Positions 54,616 to 64,000 of a stretch of DNA of 64,000 nt are shown here, one piece after another (position 1 is the stretch's first letter; every line of letters begins with the position of its first letter). A model generated the notes under the pieces. That model was not told the origin of the DNA, searched no databases, and saw only the letters and a program-made list of their open reading frames with translations. A program made the position numbers and the translations under genes. The DNA comes from an uncultured Lentimicrobiaceae bacterium (GTDB lineage Bacteria > Bacteroidota > Bacteroidia > Bacteroidales > UBA4417), in assembly GCA_964420555.1 (NCBI GenBank), contig CAYQTT010000014.1:23686-87685 (forward strand). The letters are read 5' to 3'.

Positions 54616-55506
54616 ATGAGCCATAATCACGACCATAATCATAACCATAAATCAGAAGCTAACCTACAAATGGCTTTCTGGCTTAATGCTGTATTCGCTG
54701 TTATTGAAGTTGTTGGGGGAATACTTACCAATAGTATGGCAATTCTTTCCGATGCTTTTCACGATCTCGGCGATTCGGTTGCACTGGGACTGGCCTGGTA
54801 TTTTCAACGGTATTCATCAAAACAGCGCGACGAAATTTATACTTACGGATATAAAAGGTATTCGCTTGTTGGCGCAACAGTAAGTGCCCTGATATTGCTC
54901 GCCGGTTCGGTAATTATTATCACAAACGCTATACCCCGGTTGCTAGCACCCGAGCCTGTTCACACGCAGGGAATGCTTTACCTTGCCATTGCAGGTATTA
55001 TTATTAACGGGCTGGCCATGTTCCGGTTAAAAGGTGGTGAAAGTCAGAATGAAAAGGTAATTTCCCTTCACCTGCTCGAAGATGTTATGGGATGGGTTGC
55101 AGTGCTTGTGGCGAGTATTATCATGCATTTCTGGAATGTTCCTATCCTTGATCCTATTCTTTCACTGCTGATTACATCATTTATTCTATACAGGGTTTTC
55201 GGAAACATGAAGCAGACTTTCAGGATATTTATGCAGGCAACACCATCGGGCGAACAAATCAGCCATTTTACGAAACACCTGATTGAAACAGAAGGAGTAA
55301 AGGGCGTTCACGACATGCATTTCTGGACGATGGATGGCACCTATAACATTGCTTCCATGCACATAATTGTTGATCCTGAAATAACGGTATTGCAAACTGA
55401 AACCATTAAGTTAAGCATCAGATCGTACCTAAAAGAACAAGGATTTGATCATTCAACCATTGAAATAGAATCGGATGGAAAACATTGTGAATTGCACGAT
55501 TGTTAA
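54616..55506 (+). CDS. czcD: Cation diffusion facilitator (CzcD-like)
   Basis: His-rich N-terminus, SDAFHDLGD, HLLEDVMG, HDMHFW and HSTIEIE. Confidence 0.88.
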   Translation: MSHNHDHNHNHKSEANLQMAFWLNAVFAVIEVVGGILTNSMAILSDAFHDLGDSVALGLAWYFQRYSSKQRDEIYTYGYKRYSLVGATVSALILLAGSVIIITNAIPRLLAPEPVHTQGMLYLAIAGIIINGLAMFRLKGGESQNEKVISLHLLEDVMGWVAVLVASIIMHFWNVPILDPILSLLITSFILYRVFGNMKQTFRIFMQATPSGEQISHFTKHLIETEGVKGVHDMHFWTMDGTYNIASMHIIVDPEITVLQTETIKLSIRSYLKEQGFDHSTIEIESDGKHCELHDC

Positions 55507-55571
55507 TTAAGCATTGATTTTCCTGATCATATGCAAGGATAGTCACAACATTCAATAAAAAACAGAATTAC

Positions 55572-55781
55572 ATGGAAACAATCCGGTTTAAAACCAATCT
55601 GAAATGCGGCGGATGCATAAAAGCTATTACTCCCGGCCTCGAAAGTCTTAATATTATTGATACGTGGAACGTTGACCTCGAAAACCCAGATCGGGTACTC
55701 GAAATAAAAGCTTCAGTTGATGTATCGGAGCAGGTGATAGAAAGCGTAAAAAAAGCCGGCTATCAGATAAGCCGGCTTTGA
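55572..55781 (+). CDS. Heavy-metal-associated (CopZ-like) protein
   Basis: TNLKCGGCIK motif and terminal KKAGY. Confidence 0.85.
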   Translation: METIRFKTNLKCGGCIKAITPGLESLNIIDTWNVDLENPDRVLEIKASVDVSEQVIESVKKAGYQISRL

Positions 55782-55825
55782 TAGAATACAGTTCTGCTGC
55801 TAATATAGTGGGTAAAAATGATTTT

Positions 55826-55985
55826 GTCAGAAGTCAGAAGACGGGAGTCGGAAGACACCCTTCTGCAAATTTACTCTTATGAATGTGAATTTTTAAGGCA
55901 ATTAACTTTATTTGACATAGTGTTCATACGAAGGAACAAAATCATTTAAAAGACACTTCGGTCTTCCGACTTCGGACTTCTGGCC
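55826..55985. repeat. Inverted arrays of heptamer repeats between convergent genes
   Basis: Left GTCAGAA GTCAGAA GACGGGA GTCGGAA; right (reverse complement) GCCAGAA GTCCGAA GTCGGAA GACCGAA; about 100 bp spacer. Confidence 0.65.
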
Positions 55986-56046
55986 TCTTGAAGAGTTAAA
56001 TCCTATTTAATCCGCAGTAGAGCTTACAAAAAAAACGATTTGAGCT

Positions 56047-56619
56047 CTACCTCCTGGCGATAATATCCCAGTCAACCAGTTGCCAGAAAGCATTTACATA
56101 ATCAGGCCTCCGGTTCTGAAAATCGAGGTAGTAGGCATGTTCCCAAACATCACAGGTAAGCAGGGGTTTTAATCCGTCGCGCATTGGGTTTGCTGCATTT
56201 CCGGTGGTTACAATCGCCAGTTTGCCTTCTGCATTCAGCACCAGCCATGCCCATCCTGATCCGAACTGATTTACAGCCGCCTCATTGAATTTGGTTTTAA
56301 AGGCATCGAATGAACCAAAATCGCGGTTTATCATTTCGAGCAATTTGCCTGTTGGTTCTGTACCACGGTTTGCAGAAAAACCTTCCCAGTAAAAAGTGTG
56401 GTTCCATACCTGAGCTGCATTGTTAAAAATACCGCCTTCGGCTTTCATAATAATTTCTTCGAGAGTGGAATTCTCAAAAGCAGTACCCGGAACCAGGCTG
56501 TTAAGCTTTGTAGCATATGCCTGGTGATGCTTTCCGTAATGGAATTCGATGGTTCGTGCGCTGATTACAGGTTCCAGAGCGTCGGGCGCATAAGGAAGTG
56601 TTGGAAGTTGAAATGTCAT
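56047..56619 (-). CDS. sodB: Fe (or cambialistic) superoxide dismutase
   Basis: HYGKHH, NAAQVWNHTFYW, FGSGWAWL and DVWEHAYY. Confidence 0.93.
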   Translation of the reverse strand: MTFQLPTLPYAPDALEPVISARTIEFHYGKHHQAYATKLNSLVPGTAFENSTLEEIIMKAEGGIFNNAAQVWNHTFYWEGFSANRGTEPTGKLLEMINRDFGSFDAFKTKFNEAAVNQFGSGWAWLVLNAEGKLAIVTTGNAANPMRDGLKPLLTCDVWEHAYYLDFQNRRPDYVNAFWQLVDWDIIARR

Positions 56620-60009: not shown

Positions 60010-60708
60010 CTATCCGGTTTGACTGATTTTTACAAGGTGATCATAATTTAAAATTTCAAAATCGTTGCCGTTTACCTGAATAATTCCTTCATCTTTGAAT
60101 TCCCTCAAAATGCGGATTGCACTTTCTTTCGACATCCCCGACATATCAGCCAGATCCTGACGAGATAGAGTAGTATGGAACGGATTGACCTGGTAAACTT
60201 TTTCCTTAAGATAAATCAAAACATCAGCAATTCGCCCCGGCATCTGTTTCTGGGTAAGGCTTATGAAAAGTTCATAATTGTAGATGGATTGCAAACTTAT
60301 CTTTCTAAGGAAATCTTCAGCAAAATCAGCATTATTGCGGATAAGCGATTTGAATGTTACCAGATCGACCAGGCAGGCTACCGAATCTTCGATGGCCATA
60401 GCTGAAAAATGATGCATCTGATCAGCATAAATGCCCGGTCCAAGTATATATTCCACCGGCTTAACAATGCTAAGAATCAAATTTTTATCATTGTAACCTT
60501 CAATGTAGGTTTTAACTTTGCCCTGGGTAAGGCAAAGGAAATGCATGTTGGGAGTACCTTGTTTAAATATAAGTTCGCCCGCTTTAAAGTGTACTTCTAT
60601 TCGTTTATCATCAATCTGCTCAAGCTCAGTCTGACACAAACAACTGAAAATATCAGCTTTATCTTTGCAGGAGGAACAGCCTTTGTTATATTGAGTGTAT
60701 TGATTCAC
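60010..60708 (-). CDS. Crp/Fnr family transcriptional regulator
   Basis: Cyclic-nucleotide-binding-type domain, HTH SRQDLADMSGMSKESAIR; N-terminal CSSC...CxC cysteines. Confidence 0.92.
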   Translation of the reverse strand: MNQYTQYNKGCSSCKDKADIFSCLCQTELEQIDDKRIEVHFKAGELIFKQGTPNMHFLCLTQGKVKTYIEGYNDKNLILSIVKPVEYILGPGIYADQMHHFSAMAIEDSVACLVDLVTFKSLIRNNADFAEDFLRKISLQSIYNYELFISLTQKQMPGRIADVLIYLKEKVYQVNPFHTTLSRQDLADMSGMSKESAIRILREFKDEGIIQVNGNDFEILNYDHLVKISQTG

Positions 60709-60801: not shown

Positions 60802-60837
60802 CTGACATATATCAATACTTCTACTGATAAGTATCAA
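60802..60837. promoter_or_regulatory. Two FNR/CRP-like boxes 22 bp apart
   Basis: CTGAC-ATAT-ATCAA (60802-60815) and CTGAT-AAGT-ATCAA (60824-60837) versus the consensus TTGAT-N4-ATCAA. Confidence 0.7.
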
Positions 60838-60977: not shown

Positions 60978-61358
60978 ATGAAAAAGAGATTACTTGGACT
61001 ATTAATGGTAACCGGCACGTTACTGATTATGTTAACTGCCTGTGAATACGACTTTATCGAGCCAACCCCTGCTCCTCCTCCACCACCCGCTGGTGACACC
61101 ATCAGTTTCTCCCAGGATGTCCAGCCTTTTTTCACTGCAAAATGTGCTTCGTGTCACCCCGGAGTATACAAACCTGATTTAACTGCCGGAAACTCATACA
61201 ATGCGCTGATATCAGGTAATTATGTAGTAGCAGGTGATCCGGCAACCAGCCCCCTTTACATCAAATGTAAACCAGGTGCAAGCATGGCAACATATGCCAC
61301 TGCAGCAGAGTTGGATCTTCTGTATCGCTGGATTTATGCAGGTGCTAAAAACGACTAA
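60978..61358 (+). CDS. Lipoprotein monoheme cytochrome c
   Basis: Lipobox LTA-C, Pro-rich linker, SFSQDVQPFF...CASCH heme motif. Confidence 0.82.
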   Translation: MKKRLLGLLMVTGTLLIMLTACEYDFIEPTPAPPPPPAGDTISFSQDVQPFFTAKCASCHPGVYKPDLTAGNSYNALISGNYVVAGDPATSPLYIKCKPGASMATYATAAELDLLYRWIYAGAKND

Positions 61359-61387
61359 AGTGATCTTAAATCAATAAAAAACAGAAA

Positions 61388-62317
61388 ATGATGAAAAAGA
61401 TATATTTACTACTCAGGATCAGTGCTTTAACATTTTTAACGCTGATTATTTCCCAGTCTGTAACTATTGCACAGGAAGAAGCCACTGAAGACACAATTGT
61501 TGAAAAACCAGTAGAACGTCCTGTTCGGCCGGCATTTGAAAGTGGATTATTATTTGATGCTTCAACTACAACTCTTCAACCTTCGAAAACACTCGAAATG
61601 ATCATTCAGCATCGTTTTGGCGTAATTGATTTTGATGATAAAAACACAGATTTCCTGGGCATATGGGGTGTTTCGAACATCAGGTTAGGAATGAATTACA
61701 GCATACTCGATAATTTAACTATTGGAATTGGTGCTACCAAATTCAATAAAATGGAGGATGTACAGTTAAAATACCGCGTTATTGAGCAAACCCGCTCTAA
61801 TAGTATACCGGTTACTGTTGTACTTTACGGCGTTGCTGGTATTGATGGAAGTGCTGACACCAAATGGGAGGACAGCTATAAGTTCAGCAACAGGTTATCT
61901 TATTTCTCACAAATAATAGTATCGCGTAGATTTAACGATAAATTTTCGTTGCAGTTCGCACCCGGTTTCACCCATTACAATGCAGTAGATTCCGCATACA
62001 ACCACGACAGGGTTTCGTTGTCATTGGCAGGGAGGTATAAATTCTCACCACAAGGATCATTTATTTTCTCAGGCGACTTCCCATTAGATATTGAAGGAAT
62101 TAAAGACTACAAAAAAGTGGATGATAAAGCAACTGTTTATGACAGGCCAAACATTTGTGTAGGCTTCGAAATCTCAACCAGTACACATGCTTTCCATCTG
62201 TACCTTGCAAGCGCACAGGGAATCCTGCCACAGGAAGATATTATGTGGAACAAAAATGATTTTTTCAAAGGAGAATTTCTTATAGGTCTGAACATAACCC
62301 GTTTATGGAATTTCTAA
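61388..62317 (+). CDS. DUF5777-like outer-membrane beta-barrel protein
   Basis: Signal peptide; IQHRFG, IRLG, ETSTHAF.L-like motif; terminal ITRLWNF. Confidence 0.78.
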   Translation: MMKKIYLLLRISALTFLTLIISQSVTIAQEEATEDTIVEKPVERPVRPAFESGLLFDASTTTLQPSKTLEMIIQHRFGVIDFDDKNTDFLGIWGVSNIRLGMNYSILDNLTIGIGATKFNKMEDVQLKYRVIEQTRSNSIPVTVVLYGVAGIDGSADTKWEDSYKFSNRLSYFSQIIVSRRFNDKFSLQFAPGFTHYNAVDSAYNHDRVSLSLAGRYKFSPQGSFIFSGDFPLDIEGIKDYKKVDDKATVYDRPNICVGFEISTSTHAFHLYLASAQGILPQEDIMWNKNDFFKGEFLIGLNITRLWNF

Positions 62318-62380
62318 ACTAAAAAAAGCCTTTGGAATAGAATTTGCACTAATTAAGAAAAATTTTAAAACCAAAACAAT

Positions 62381-62797
62381 ATGAAAAACTCAATTAAATT
62401 TGCTGCAATCATCTGCATAGCAGTTATGTTCGTTACAGCCAACATGGCAATGGCACAAAAAGCGGGCGGTCCATGGACAGTTCCAGCCAAGTACAAAGCA
62501 ATGAAAACCACCGTTAAAGCCGGAGATGCTTCAATCAACACAGTTGGAAAGGAAACTTACAACAAACATTGCAAATCGTGCCACGGAGCAAAAGGATTAG
62601 GTGATGGTCCAAAAGCCGCCAACCTTAAAACCAGCACCGGCGATTTCTCGGCAGCTAAATTCCAGGCACTCTCCGATGGAGAACTTTATTACATGTCATT
62701 CATCGGCCGCGATGAAATGCCTAATTTCGAAAAGAAAATTCTTGATGAAGCTGACAGATGGGCTGTTATTGGCTACATCCGTACCATGAAAAAATAA
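62381..62797 (+). CDS. Periplasmic class I cytochrome c
   Basis: Signal peptide AMA-Q, CKSCH, distal Met in GRDEMPNF, RWAVIGYIRTM. Confidence 0.9.
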   Translation: MKNSIKFAAIICIAVMFVTANMAMAQKAGGPWTVPAKYKAMKTTVKAGDASINTVGKETYNKHCKSCHGAKGLGDGPKAANLKTSTGDFSAAKFQALSDGELYYMSFIGRDEMPNFEKKILDEADRWAVIGYIRTMKK

Positions 62798-62806
62798 TTT
62801 TTCTAC

Positions 62807-62840
62807 AAAAGGGTGTTCTGCTAAAACTGAACACCCTTTT
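62807..62840 (+). terminator. Intrinsic terminator-like hairpin inside the cytochrome operon
   Basis: AAAAGGGTGTTC...GAACACCCTTTT followed by T residues. Confidence 0.7.
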
Positions 62841-62883
62841 TGTTTTCCTGCATGTATAGTACATATACCAATACTTCCAAAAC

Positions 62884-63867
62884 ATGATTTTACTCTTTAC
62901 TCGCCTGACCGGGATAGTCCAGGTTCGCTGTTTTATTGCAATGCTTCTCGTTATGATGATCTCCGTCGTTACGGAAGCGCAAAATAAACCCAAACAAGAA
63001 ACAATTAGTTTTAATGAAAAGTGCCTGAAATGCCACGGGCAATCGAAATACAAATACATGAATCCTGAATCGGGTTCAGAAGTTACAAAGAGGATGTATC
63101 TCGAAACAATTATAAATCGTACCGAATTTTACGACTCGAACCATAAGACATTTAAATGTACCGATTGCCATTCCGAAGATTATGATTCCTTTCCACACCC
63201 CGGACGACTGAGGATGGAATCGAAATATGCCTGTATTGATTGCCATGGCGGAGACGAAACATATGCAAAGTTTAAATTTGAGGAAATTGAAACTGAATTT
63301 CAATCCAGCGTGCATGCAACTAAACATAGCGATGACTTTAACTGCTGGATGTGCCATGATCCTCATACCTATAAAATTAATGTTCGTTCCGAAGAAAAAA
63401 TAAAAGATATTGTGGCTTATGACAATGCTATTTGTCTGAACTGTCACGCCGATATTACCAAATACCAAATGCTTACGGATAAGGTTAATCCAAATATCAT
63501 CAAAAAACATGAGTGGCTGCCTAACCAGGCACTGCATTTTAAAAATGTTCGTTGTATCGAATGCCATGCACGTACCAACGATTCCATTCTGGTTGCCCAC
63601 AATGTTCAACCAAAAGAAAAAGCTGTACGCAGATGTGTGGAGTGCCATTCGACCAACTCTATCCTGATGGCATCGTTGTATAAATATAAGGTACAGGAGG
63701 AACGCAGTAAAACCGGATTTTATAACGGAGTTATAATGAACGAAGGATATGTAATTGGTGCAAACCGTAATTACTACCTGGGAATAATCAGCTTAATAAT
63801 GTTCGGCTGCGTAGCTTTCGGAATTGCAATTCATGCAACACTAAGAATCATAAAACGTAAGAAATAA
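62884..63867 (+). CDS. Membrane-anchored heptaheme cytochrome c
   Basis: Seven CxxCH motifs (CLKCH, CTDCH, CIDCH, CWMCH, CLNCH, CIECH, CVECH); N-terminal signal and C-terminal TM helix. Confidence 0.9.
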   Translation: MILLFTRLTGIVQVRCFIAMLLVMMISVVTEAQNKPKQETISFNEKCLKCHGQSKYKYMNPESGSEVTKRMYLETIINRTEFYDSNHKTFKCTDCHSEDYDSFPHPGRLRMESKYACIDCHGGDETYAKFKFEEIETEFQSSVHATKHSDDFNCWMCHDPHTYKINVRSEEKIKDIVAYDNAICLNCHADITKYQMLTDKVNPNIIKKHEWLPNQALHFKNVRCIECHARTNDSILVAHNVQPKEKAVRRCVECHSTNSILMASLYKYKVQEERSKTGFYNGVIMNEGYVIGANRNYYLGIISLIMFGCVAFGIAIHATLRIIKRKK

Positions 63868-64000
63868 TGTCAGGAAAATTATATTTATATCCCGTGTGGA
63901 TCAGGCTATGGCATGCCCTCAATGCCATTCTAATTATACTTCTCATTATCAGTGGCATAAGTATGCAATACACCAATCCGGCTAATCCATTTATCCGTTT
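63867..64000 (+). CDS. HydC/FdnI-like cytochrome b, 3' truncated (not in ORF track)
   Basis: TAATG stop/start overlap; MSGKLYLYPVWIRLWHALNAILIILLIISGISMQY..., with the RLWH heme-b ligand pattern. Confidence 0.8.
   Translation, partial: MSGKLYLYPVWIRLWHALNAILIILLIISGISMQYTNPANPFIR

Follow-up and report, generated by a model that had tools for sequence, protein, structure and literature searches.

How might a bacterium of the phylum Bacteroidota carry respiratory electrons from its quinone pool to the outer membrane, and possibly beyond it? Most of what is understood of extracellular electron transfer comes from Shewanella and Geobacter, in which large porins surround multihaem wires. Sediments, digesters and electrode biofilms are rich in Bacteroidota, and we know of no extracellular electron transfer route described for them. 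The question is raised by a cytochrome gene array at the end of a 64,000-nucleotide stretch of DNA (the window) from an uncultured subsurface Lentimicrobiaceae bacterium (assembly GCA_964420555.1, here G000; contig CAYQTT010000014.1, here C14; window G000:C14:23686-87685). An original prediction, made from the window sequence alone, read five of these genes as a porin-cytochrome pathway for extracellular electron transfer built around an outer-membrane barrel of the DUF5777 family. The analysis was extended into the genome, including the next 20 kb downstream (L002). Judged from its genes, the array is a quinol-to-outer-membrane electron-transfer system with Geobacter-like inner-membrane modules; it probably serves an external or pore-admitted acceptor and may be a new, minimal route for electrons out of the cell. 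The part of the predicted pathway that leads from the quinone pool to outer-membrane components held up, with conserved FNR-like boxes in front of it, and the role of DUF5777 as a cytochrome sheath did not.

The five open reading frames of that prediction (g01-g05) are all present on the + strand, and the complete array g01-g13 spans about 13 kb. Its features are given in window coordinates up to g05 and in contig coordinates from g06 onwards.

60010..60708, - strand: g00, Crp/Fnr-family regulator, divergent from the cytochrome genes (Pfam cNMP_binding 4.6e-13, HTH_Crp_2 6.5e-15).
60978..61358, + strand: g01, monohaem lipoprotein cytochrome c with a PSCyt1-like fold (126 aa, lipobox, one CASCH).
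61388..62317, + strand: g02, predicted DUF5777 outer-membrane barrel (309 aa, signal peptide, PF19089 E 3.7e-70, C-terminal ...RLWNF).
62381..62797, + strand: g03, soluble periplasmic class I monohaem cytochrome c (138 aa, signal peptide, CKSCH; Pfam Cytochrom_C 7e-12, Cytochrome_CBB3 2.8e-11).
62884..63867, + strand: g04, CbcA-like heptahaem cytochrome c (327 aa, 7 CXXCH, 16 His, C-terminal transmembrane (TM) segment 296-323, Pfam c3/c7 families).
63867..64000, + strand: g05, 5' part of a CbcB-like cytochrome b gene that leaves the window (whole gene G000:C14:87552-88169, 205 aa).
G000:C14:88247-89209: g06, Fe-S protein, a polyferredoxin with a twin-arginine translocation (Tat) signal.
G000:C14:89209-90534: g07, membrane protein of the NrfD family (the g06 stop and the g07 start share one base).
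G000:C14:90579-91484: g08, membrane protein (301 aa, signal peptide, C-terminal TM helix), with no family match in domain-profile searches.
G000:C14:91699-93198: g09, ImcH-like cytochrome (499 aa).
G000:C14:93279-94709: g10, NAD-binding NmrA-like protein with DUF2867 (476 aa, without signal peptide).
G000:C14:94771-95160: g11, small polytopic membrane protein (129 aa).
G000:C14:95288-95698: g12, cytochrome c, paralogue of g03.
G000:C14:96248-97603: g13, hexahaem lipoprotein (451 aa).
G000:C14:97666-97699: intrinsic terminator, 60 nt past g13.

The order g00, g01, g02, g03, g04, g05 recurs, divergent Crp/Fnr gene included, in about 20 Lentimicrobiaceae/Bacteroidales loci from metagenome-assembled genomes (MAGs) at 60-96% protein identity, with g06-g08 optional among them; the five-gene arrangement is therefore not due to chance. 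The sole strong intrinsic terminator on the array strand is the one directly after g13. The 20 kb downstream encodes no molybdopterin, copper or sirohaem enzyme and no other catalytic subunit. The only candidate there for a terminal reductase, g13, was rejected, as the NrfA CXXCK site is absent. Since the array thus lacks a catalytic terminal reductase, the chief objection foreseen with the original prediction, namely that a downstream periplasmic reductase accounts for the cytochromes, does not apply. The haem-maturation genes sought alongside it are represented elsewhere in the genome by a System II maturase, CcsBA (C5:23497-26679).

Three putative quinol-oxidising modules of the inner membrane are encoded in the array, and their likeness to Geobacter CbcBA, ImcH and Cbc4 was judged by architecture and description. 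The first is formed by g04 and g05. The start of g05 overlaps the stop of g04 (TAATG, position 63867), and its product matches Pfam Ni_hydr_CYTB (PF01292, E 5.7e-22) as well as the NCBIfam thiosulfate-reductase cytochrome b model NF011582 (E 1.5e-51, yet under that model's cut-off). The paper on CbcBA describes CbcA as a periplasm-exposed heptahaem cytochrome with a C-terminal TM anchor and its partner as a dihaem b subunit, usually annotated as thiosulfate-reductase-like, and reports homologous clusters in Bacteroidetes. As in CbcBA of Geobacter sulfurreducens, a heptahaem cytochrome c with a C-terminal anchor and a HydC/PhsC-type cytochrome b are adjacent and translationally coupled here, and the pair appears to fit the CbcBA architecture. 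Haem count, anchor, cytochrome b family and gene overlap thus bear out what had been proposed for these two genes: a membrane-anchored seven-haem cytochrome, a coupled cytochrome b and a parallel with the Geobacter quinol-oxidising modules. CbcBA goes with the sigma-54 regulator BccR; no BccR-like regulator adjoins g04/g05, the divergent regulator of the array being of the Crp/Fnr type.

The second module is g09. ImcH homologues comprise 495-519 aa, with three N-terminal TM motifs, an atypical CX3CH beside them, six CX2CH motifs and a NapC/NirT-like region, and were so far found only in Fe(III) reducers (PMC6295460). The g09 protein has TM-like segments at 10-41, 39-73 and 94-115, CGKLCH at 128, six CXXCH motifs and matches to Pfam Cytochrom_NNT (4.8e-08) and NrfH (1.3e-16). 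It appears to share every architectural feature listed for ImcH, a match by architecture and not by alignment to Geobacter ImcH (GSU3259).

The third module, g06/g07, is probably a NrfC/NrfD-type quinol dehydrogenase akin to CbcT/CbcU, SirC/SirD and DsrO/DsrP. The best NCBIfam match of g06 is DsrO (4e-49), and it also matches QrcC, NrfC and TtrB; a Tat Fe-S protein with an NrfD-type membrane subunit is likewise found in Geobacter Cbc4 (CbcSTU) and Shewanella SirCD. An assignment of g06-g08 to Geobacter CbcC/D/E was rejected: CbcC and CbcD are c-type cytochromes, these Cbc5 subunits have no counterpart in the array, and CbcTU, SirCD and DsrOP fit better. Compared with Geobacter, the Lentimicrobiaceae array differs in that all three module types share one locus under one Crp/Fnr-type regulator. 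The presumed carriers differ as well. Geobacter uses PpcA-type trihaem cytochromes; in the array the carriers are class I monohaem cytochromes, of which g03 was correctly recognised in the original prediction. Alternative complex III passes quinol electrons to c-type cytochromes in Bacteroidota, and resembles the array in having a periplasmic Fe-S and an NrfD-type subunit that feed such cytochromes. The array has no ActB1 molybdopterin-like domain, ActA pentahaem protein, second NrfD subunit or adjacent oxidase genes, by which it differs from this complex (ActABCDEF).

At the outer membrane, the constant core of the system across the loci compared is g13, g01 and DUF5777, accompanied by a quinol dehydrogenase and a class I cytochrome c. 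In cultured Aquipluma nitroreducens the locus (AP018694.1:975554-996885) comprises the Crp/Fnr gene, g13, g01, DUF5777, CbcA-like and CbcB-like genes, a 960-aa multihaem-membrane fusion, an ImcH-like gene, a small multihaem gene and CcsBA. In Flavobacteriaceae (Lutimonas, G219) it comprises g13, g01, DUF5777, NrfC, NrfD, g08 and cytochrome c, with CcsBA adjoining in Lutimonas. The genes for g13, the monohaem lipoprotein and DUF5777 are adjacent in both Prolixibacteraceae and Flavobacteriaceae. In G219 an additional 411-aa lipoprotein (C-THDDY, one CXXCH; L074:10053-11288) is encoded between the g13-like gene and the g01-like gene; the window's array lacks it.

The strongest support for an outward-directed pathway comes from what replaces the barrel in related lineages. 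Among 401 sampled Bacteroidota genomes, g13-like proteins occur in 17. All three in class Bacteroidia carry the DUF5777/g01 pair at that locus, and the remaining 14 genomes belong to classes in which DUF5777 was not found in this sample. Gene content was read in six g13-like loci from these other classes, all without DUF5777. Each is a Pcc-like (porin-cytochrome) cluster in which a g13-like lipoprotein is accompanied by ImcH-like, 3-4-haem, 12- or 14-haem and 4-8-haem genes and by a gene for a non-haem porin-like protein of about 430 aa, the label porin-like reflecting only where the gene lies, its signal peptide and an aromatic residue at the C-terminus. A 4-6-haem lipoprotein precedes the g13-like one in five of these clusters; in the sixth an 8-haem gene follows it, and one cluster (L070) also has a CbcL-like gene. 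The putative barrels of these clusters, and those next to giant multihaem genes on contig C5, matched no Pfam family. For Ignavibacterium, the prediction of a Pcc cluster dates from 2014. Since relatives of g13 sit elsewhere with porin-like and 12- or 14-haem genes, DUF5777 and g01 appear, on gene content, to occupy the slot held by the porin and multihaem pair in sister lineages.

This equivalence of position does not extend to architecture. Pcc (OmbB-OmaB-OmcB of Geobacter, predicted in Ignavibacterium) and MtrCAB of Shewanella resemble the array in the clustering of genes for an outer-membrane barrel, a lipoprotein multihaem cytochrome and inner-membrane quinol oxidases; the lipoprotein multihaem cytochrome is represented here by g13, which has a lipobox and a predicted outer-membrane location. 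Their barrels have 20-26 strands against a predicted 12 for DUF5777, and they thread a periplasmic multihaem cytochrome, whereas the partners of DUF5777 are a monohaem lipoprotein and monohaem soluble cytochromes. Likened by architecture, Cyc2 of iron oxidisers is another comparable system, pairing a single-haem cytochrome with a small outer-membrane barrel. The 16-stranded barrel of Cyc2 is invariably fused to its cytochrome, and the protein oxidises Fe(II), whereas the present parts are usually split and the barrel has 12 strands; the constant partner of DUF5777 is a PSCyt1-type lipoprotein, the rare fusion uses a class I domain, and the context points to quinol oxidation.

The reading of g02 as an outer-membrane beta-barrel agrees with the DUF5777 match and with an AlphaFold2 model built from 89 sequences (pLDDT 92.4), in which 12 strands are joined by long loops at one end and tight turns at the opposite end. 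The closest solved folds in a Foldseek search are NanC, FapF, the COG4313 channel and OmpG, and the best structural matches are 12-14-stranded channels. From strand alternation, the lumen is polar and net basic, with about 8 basic and 4 acidic lumen-facing residues. Both neighbours of the barrel gene, g01 and g03, are monohaem, and no periplasmic multihaem cytochrome lies beside it. The literature search found no paper that mentions DUF5777 and none describing a Bacteroidota porin-cytochrome system with lipoproteins. Among the 89 DUF5777 sequences H75, H196 and H267 are conserved at 87-99%; by strand alternation, H267 sits at the periplasmic rim, H75 and H196 at the extracellular one. F77, F269 and F301 stand out alongside these histidines, and a His/Phe patch is found on strands 1, 11 and 12, on the side that seems to face the lipid. 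Such a patch is unexpected on the outside of a barrel and may bind a cofactor or a partner. A haem b held inside the barrel by the conserved His was rejected, as strand alternation puts H75 and H267 on the hydrophobic face and no bis-His site in the lumen could be made out from it.

The lipoprotein g01 was correctly read as a lipoprotein cytochrome. Its lipobox (LTA-C) is followed by EYDFIE and a PTPAPPPPPAG tether, its single haem motif is CASCH, and the 19-residue acidic, proline-rich tether CEYDFIEPTPAPPPPPAGDT has counterparts of 15-19 residues, acidic and proline-rich, in every orthologue read. Matches of g01 to cytochrome models are weak; its orthologues retain CX2CH or CX4CH, and paralogous lipoproteins beside other DUF5777 genes pass the Pfam PSCyt1 cut-off (25.2 bits vs 22). 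Published surface-export signals of Bacteroidota lipoproteins (lipoprotein export signals, LES) include C-X-K-(D/E)2-X, SDDDD and SDDFE, a pattern of a polar or basic residue followed by at least two acidic ones within +2..+6 of the lipidated Cys. EYDFIE has three acidic residues and carries a net charge of -3, among the most negative 4% of the 342 crudely predicted lipoproteins of the genome, and the eleven SusD homologues of the same genome start C-[STEQ]K[DE]FL[DE] or similarly (e.g., C-EDFLDL, C-SKDFLE). The tail after the Cys of g01 therefore resembles, in sequence, both the genome's own SusD N-termini and the published export signal, in agreement with the resemblance noted originally.

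The second lipoprotein, g13, has a collagen-like G-X-Y linker, five CXXCH and one CX4CH, the first motif being CTECH. It has no CXXCK and at least six additional invariant His, so all of its haems can be bis-His electron carriers. Its match to NrfA in the PDB (E 0.0027) covers 56 residues only. A Foldseek search with its model (pLDDT 74) gave non-significant hits only, to OcwA (E 0.19) and NrfA (E 3.8). An assignment as NrfA-type pentahaem nitrite reductase was rejected on the missing CXXCK, the six haem motifs and the at least six further invariant His. Against the Pfam model for MtrC/MtrF domain II/IV the g13 family scores from weakly up to the threshold, and one relative in the Pcc-like clusters passes the cut-off. 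The view that the pathway is unrelated to MtrCAB thus needs qualification as far as this hexahaem lipoprotein family is concerned.

DUF5777 is spread far beyond arrays of this type: it occurs in 167 of the 401 Bacteroidota genomes (42%) and in 90 of 179 genera. Genes beside the main subfamily encode CXXCH lipoproteins of the PSCyt1 type, a tRNA_anti-like OB-fold protein anchored in the membrane, YceI-like proteins and, in some cases, Tat-Rieske proteins. A natural fusion found on two contigs (P0228, 407 aa) carries a g03-type cytochrome c domain N-terminal to DUF5777. In its locus (L078:5201-7691, a metagenome contig), a Reeler-domain protein with CALCH and the C-terminal sorting domain of the type IX secretion system (T9SS) is encoded upstream, and the downstream gene encodes a g01-like lipoprotein cytochrome. 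The association of the barrel with c-type cytochromes is thus a consistent one, and at some loci it extends to redox proteins exported to the cell surface. Another protein from the representative search (P0169, 615 aa) has two DUF5777 barrels in tandem in one polypeptide. The source genome itself has a second DUF5777 gene (G000:C7:222872-223636; L039), which outscores g02 on the Pfam model; ahead of it are genes for two PSCyt1-like CXXCH lipoproteins (C-YYDNEED) and for a tRNA_anti-like OB-fold protein with a membrane anchor.

Anaerobic control of the array is suggested by its regulator and by the intergenic region between g00 and g01, in which two FNR-like boxes were recognised against TTGAT-N4-ATCAA.

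60802..60815: FNR-like box 1, cTGAcATATATCAA, two mismatches.
60824..60837: FNR-like box 2, cTGATAAGTATCAA, one mismatch, 22 bp after box 1.

The regulator is 77-97% identical across the approximately 20 syntenic loci and has an N-terminal Cys cluster CSSC...C.C (Cys at 11, 14, 23 and 25). Both boxes are kept at the identical 22-bp spacing in 15 of 15 orthologous loci, and the TGA-N6-TCA core of box 1 is retained in all 15 orthologous intergenic regions, while the structural proteins fall to 60-70% identity across the loci that keep both boxes. Over the whole window such boxes are not enriched (99 sites with two or fewer mismatches observed vs 91 expected). The case for these two boxes rests on their conservation, since the window counts sit at chance. 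Regulator domains, Cys ligands and conserved boxes match what is expected of FNR, and suggest that the array is under FNR-type control.

We hold, with about even confidence, that the array is an anaerobically induced respiratory branch carrying electrons from menaquinol to cytochromes anchored at the outer membrane. We infer its protein contacts, lipoprotein orientation, direction of flow, acceptor and electron crossing at the barrel as follows. An FNR-type regulator would switch on g01-g13, and quinol would be oxidised by the CbcBA-like g04/g05, the NrfC/NrfD-type g06-g08 with its accessory membrane protein, and the ImcH-type g09. The paralogous soluble cytochromes g03 and g12 would shuttle the electrons through the periplasm to a receiving module of three parts: the DUF5777 barrel, the tethered PSCyt1-like monohaem lipoprotein g01 and the MtrC/NrfA-related hexahaem lipoprotein g13. 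Most likely, g03 would dock where the barrel opens to the periplasm, an arrangement mirrored by the natural fusion protein. DUF5777 may hold or position the lipoprotein cytochromes, and these would reduce an acceptor outside the cell or entering via the pore; Fe(III) or Mn forms, humic quinones and the surface of a partner are candidates.

Several observations weigh against this reading. Most DUF5777 genes have no multihaem cytochromes nearby, and because the family is found in 42% of the genomes, mostly in such surroundings, its basic job is not metal respiration as such and its role is broader; the extracellular-metal-respiration function originally offered for the whole family was too narrow. 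Having 12 strands against 26 in MtrB and 16 in Cyc2 (20-26 in cytochrome-sheathing porins), the modelled barrel cannot enclose a cytochrome domain as MtrB or OmbB does. With its NanC/FapF/COG4313-like fold and only monohaem flanking proteins, the sheath role first assigned to it was abandoned. A membrane gap of about 25-30 Angstrom is left unbridged by any visible haem chain, at one haem per barrel partner. The tail of g13, C-TKEGP, nearly invariant in the family, is ambiguous as an export signal (K+3 and E+4 only). Described Lentimicrobiaceae are fermenters, and the sequence archive runs containing the locus are DNA metagenomes only (rock, groundwater), with no RNA runs. Finally, a giant multihaem cluster of the same genome, with 20- and 43-haem cytochromes and a putative barrel, could be the real exit route and the array its feeder. 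In this cluster (G000:C5:47225-53965) adjacent genes encode cytochromes of 533 aa (20 CXXCH) and 1175 aa (43 CXXCH and 3 CX3-4CH), followed by a 546-aa secreted protein ending ...LTQRF and preceded by a ferredoxin/FAD-type protein and a membrane protein. It matches the "giant PCC cluster" of a Lentimicrobium MAG, with 61 and 20 haem sites, for which a lifestyle linked to extracellular electron transfer was proposed in 2026 (PMC13013709).

A doubtful possibility is that reduction takes place in the periplasm, with g01 and g13 on the inner leaflet of the outer membrane and DUF5777 as a small channel admitting an anionic acceptor (chelated Fe(III), a quinone sulfonate-like humic or an oxyanion), so that nothing leaves the cell. 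The 12-stranded PDB barrels nearest to the g02 model are solute channels (NanC, the KdgM-type VhGalP and the COG4313 channel), the polar lumen has the basic excess such an acceptor would suit, and Cyc2 is thought to admit its substrate into the pore. The evidence from g13 is divided: its weak matches to NrfA and OcwA and a tail that is not clearly an export signal are compatible with a periplasmic site, whereas the absence of CXXCK, invariant His sufficient for six bis-His haems and the outer-membrane cytochrome position of its relatives in Pcc-like clusters argue otherwise. A canonical nrfAH is moreover encoded elsewhere in the genome, the g01 tail is strongly acidic, as in surface lipoproteins, and the fusion locus has as neighbour a CXXCH protein whose T9SS tail points to the surface.

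Electrons could also flow inwards, the barrel and monohaem cytochrome acting as a split miniature Cyc2 that oxidises Fe(II), reduced humics, a cathode or a partner and feeds nitrite/nitrate reduction or quinones. The layout of the fusion P0228 (signal peptide, monohaem cytochrome, barrel) mirrors that of Cyc2, CbcL-family modules are known in oxidisers and reducers alike, and the genome comes from rock and groundwater samples and carries nrfAH. We consider this very unlikely, given that the known ImcH homologues are from Fe(III) reducers, that an uphill reduction of quinone would hardly call for three quinol-oxidising modules, and that the barrel has 12 strands instead of 16, with g01 a lipoprotein in its own right and of another cytochrome type. 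Only slightly better is the idea, quite unlikely in our opinion, that DUF5777 and PSCyt1 lipoproteins form a general redox unit of the Bacteroidota envelope (radical or peroxide defence, assimilatory iron reduction, or lipid/quinone redox with YceI), which the array supplies with respiratory electrons under anoxia. The breadth of the family, its usual neighbours and the second copy in the source genome are what such housekeeping would predict; the heavy, subfamily-specific investment in three quinol dehydrogenases, two carriers and a hexahaem lipoprotein, the exact co-inheritance with ImcH and CbcBA homologues, and the link that g13 makes to Pcc-like clusters are not.

Returning to the branch that ends at the outer membrane, its furthest-reaching form seems to us unlikely. 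DUF5777 and PSCyt1-type haem lipoproteins would then be an unrecognised minimal trans-outer-membrane relay present in about 40% of Bacteroidota, in which the 12-stranded barrel holds a cofactor or threads the lipoprotein tether and so links cytochromes c of the periplasm with redox proteins on the surface. Lineages such as Lentimicrobiaceae and Prolixibacteraceae would have recruited the relay as the exit of a Geobacter-like ImcH/CbcBA chain, replacing the porin and multihaem wire of Ignavibacteria-like relatives. For a cofactor, the barrel offers three near-invariant His and the conserved His/Phe patch; the segment threaded would be the 15-19-residue acidic, proline-rich tether.

The locus joins Geobacter-type quinol oxidases (ImcH-, CbcBA- and CbcTU-like) to a much smaller and differently built outer-membrane module. 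If the proposal is true, it offers a new solution for crossing the outer membrane, a function for a domain of unknown function found in about 40% of the phylum and marker genes for electroactive Bacteroidota. Cultured carriers (Aquipluma nitroreducens; Flavobacteriaceae such as Lutimonas saemankumensis DP2N0-7) make the system directly testable.

Other genes of the locus and the genome deserve mention. The pair g10 and g11 (G000:C14:93279-95160 = L002:9280-11161) is conserved in at least eight related loci, with the ImcH-like gene on one side and the gene for the second cytochrome c on the other. A second multihaem cluster (G000:C5:7989-26679) encodes 8-, 5-, 4- and 11-haem proteins, a 692-aa putative barrel and two NHL-repeat-like proteins, together with a sensor kinase, a response regulator and the CcsBA haem maturase, a fusion of ResB and CcsA. 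Just upstream of the regulator region, at window positions 54616-56619, lie genes for a His-rich cation-efflux protein of the cation diffusion facilitator (CDF) family, a 69-aa heavy-metal-associated (CxxC) protein and an Fe/Mn superoxide dismutase, so that genes for metal and oxygen handling neighbour the anaerobic cytochrome array.

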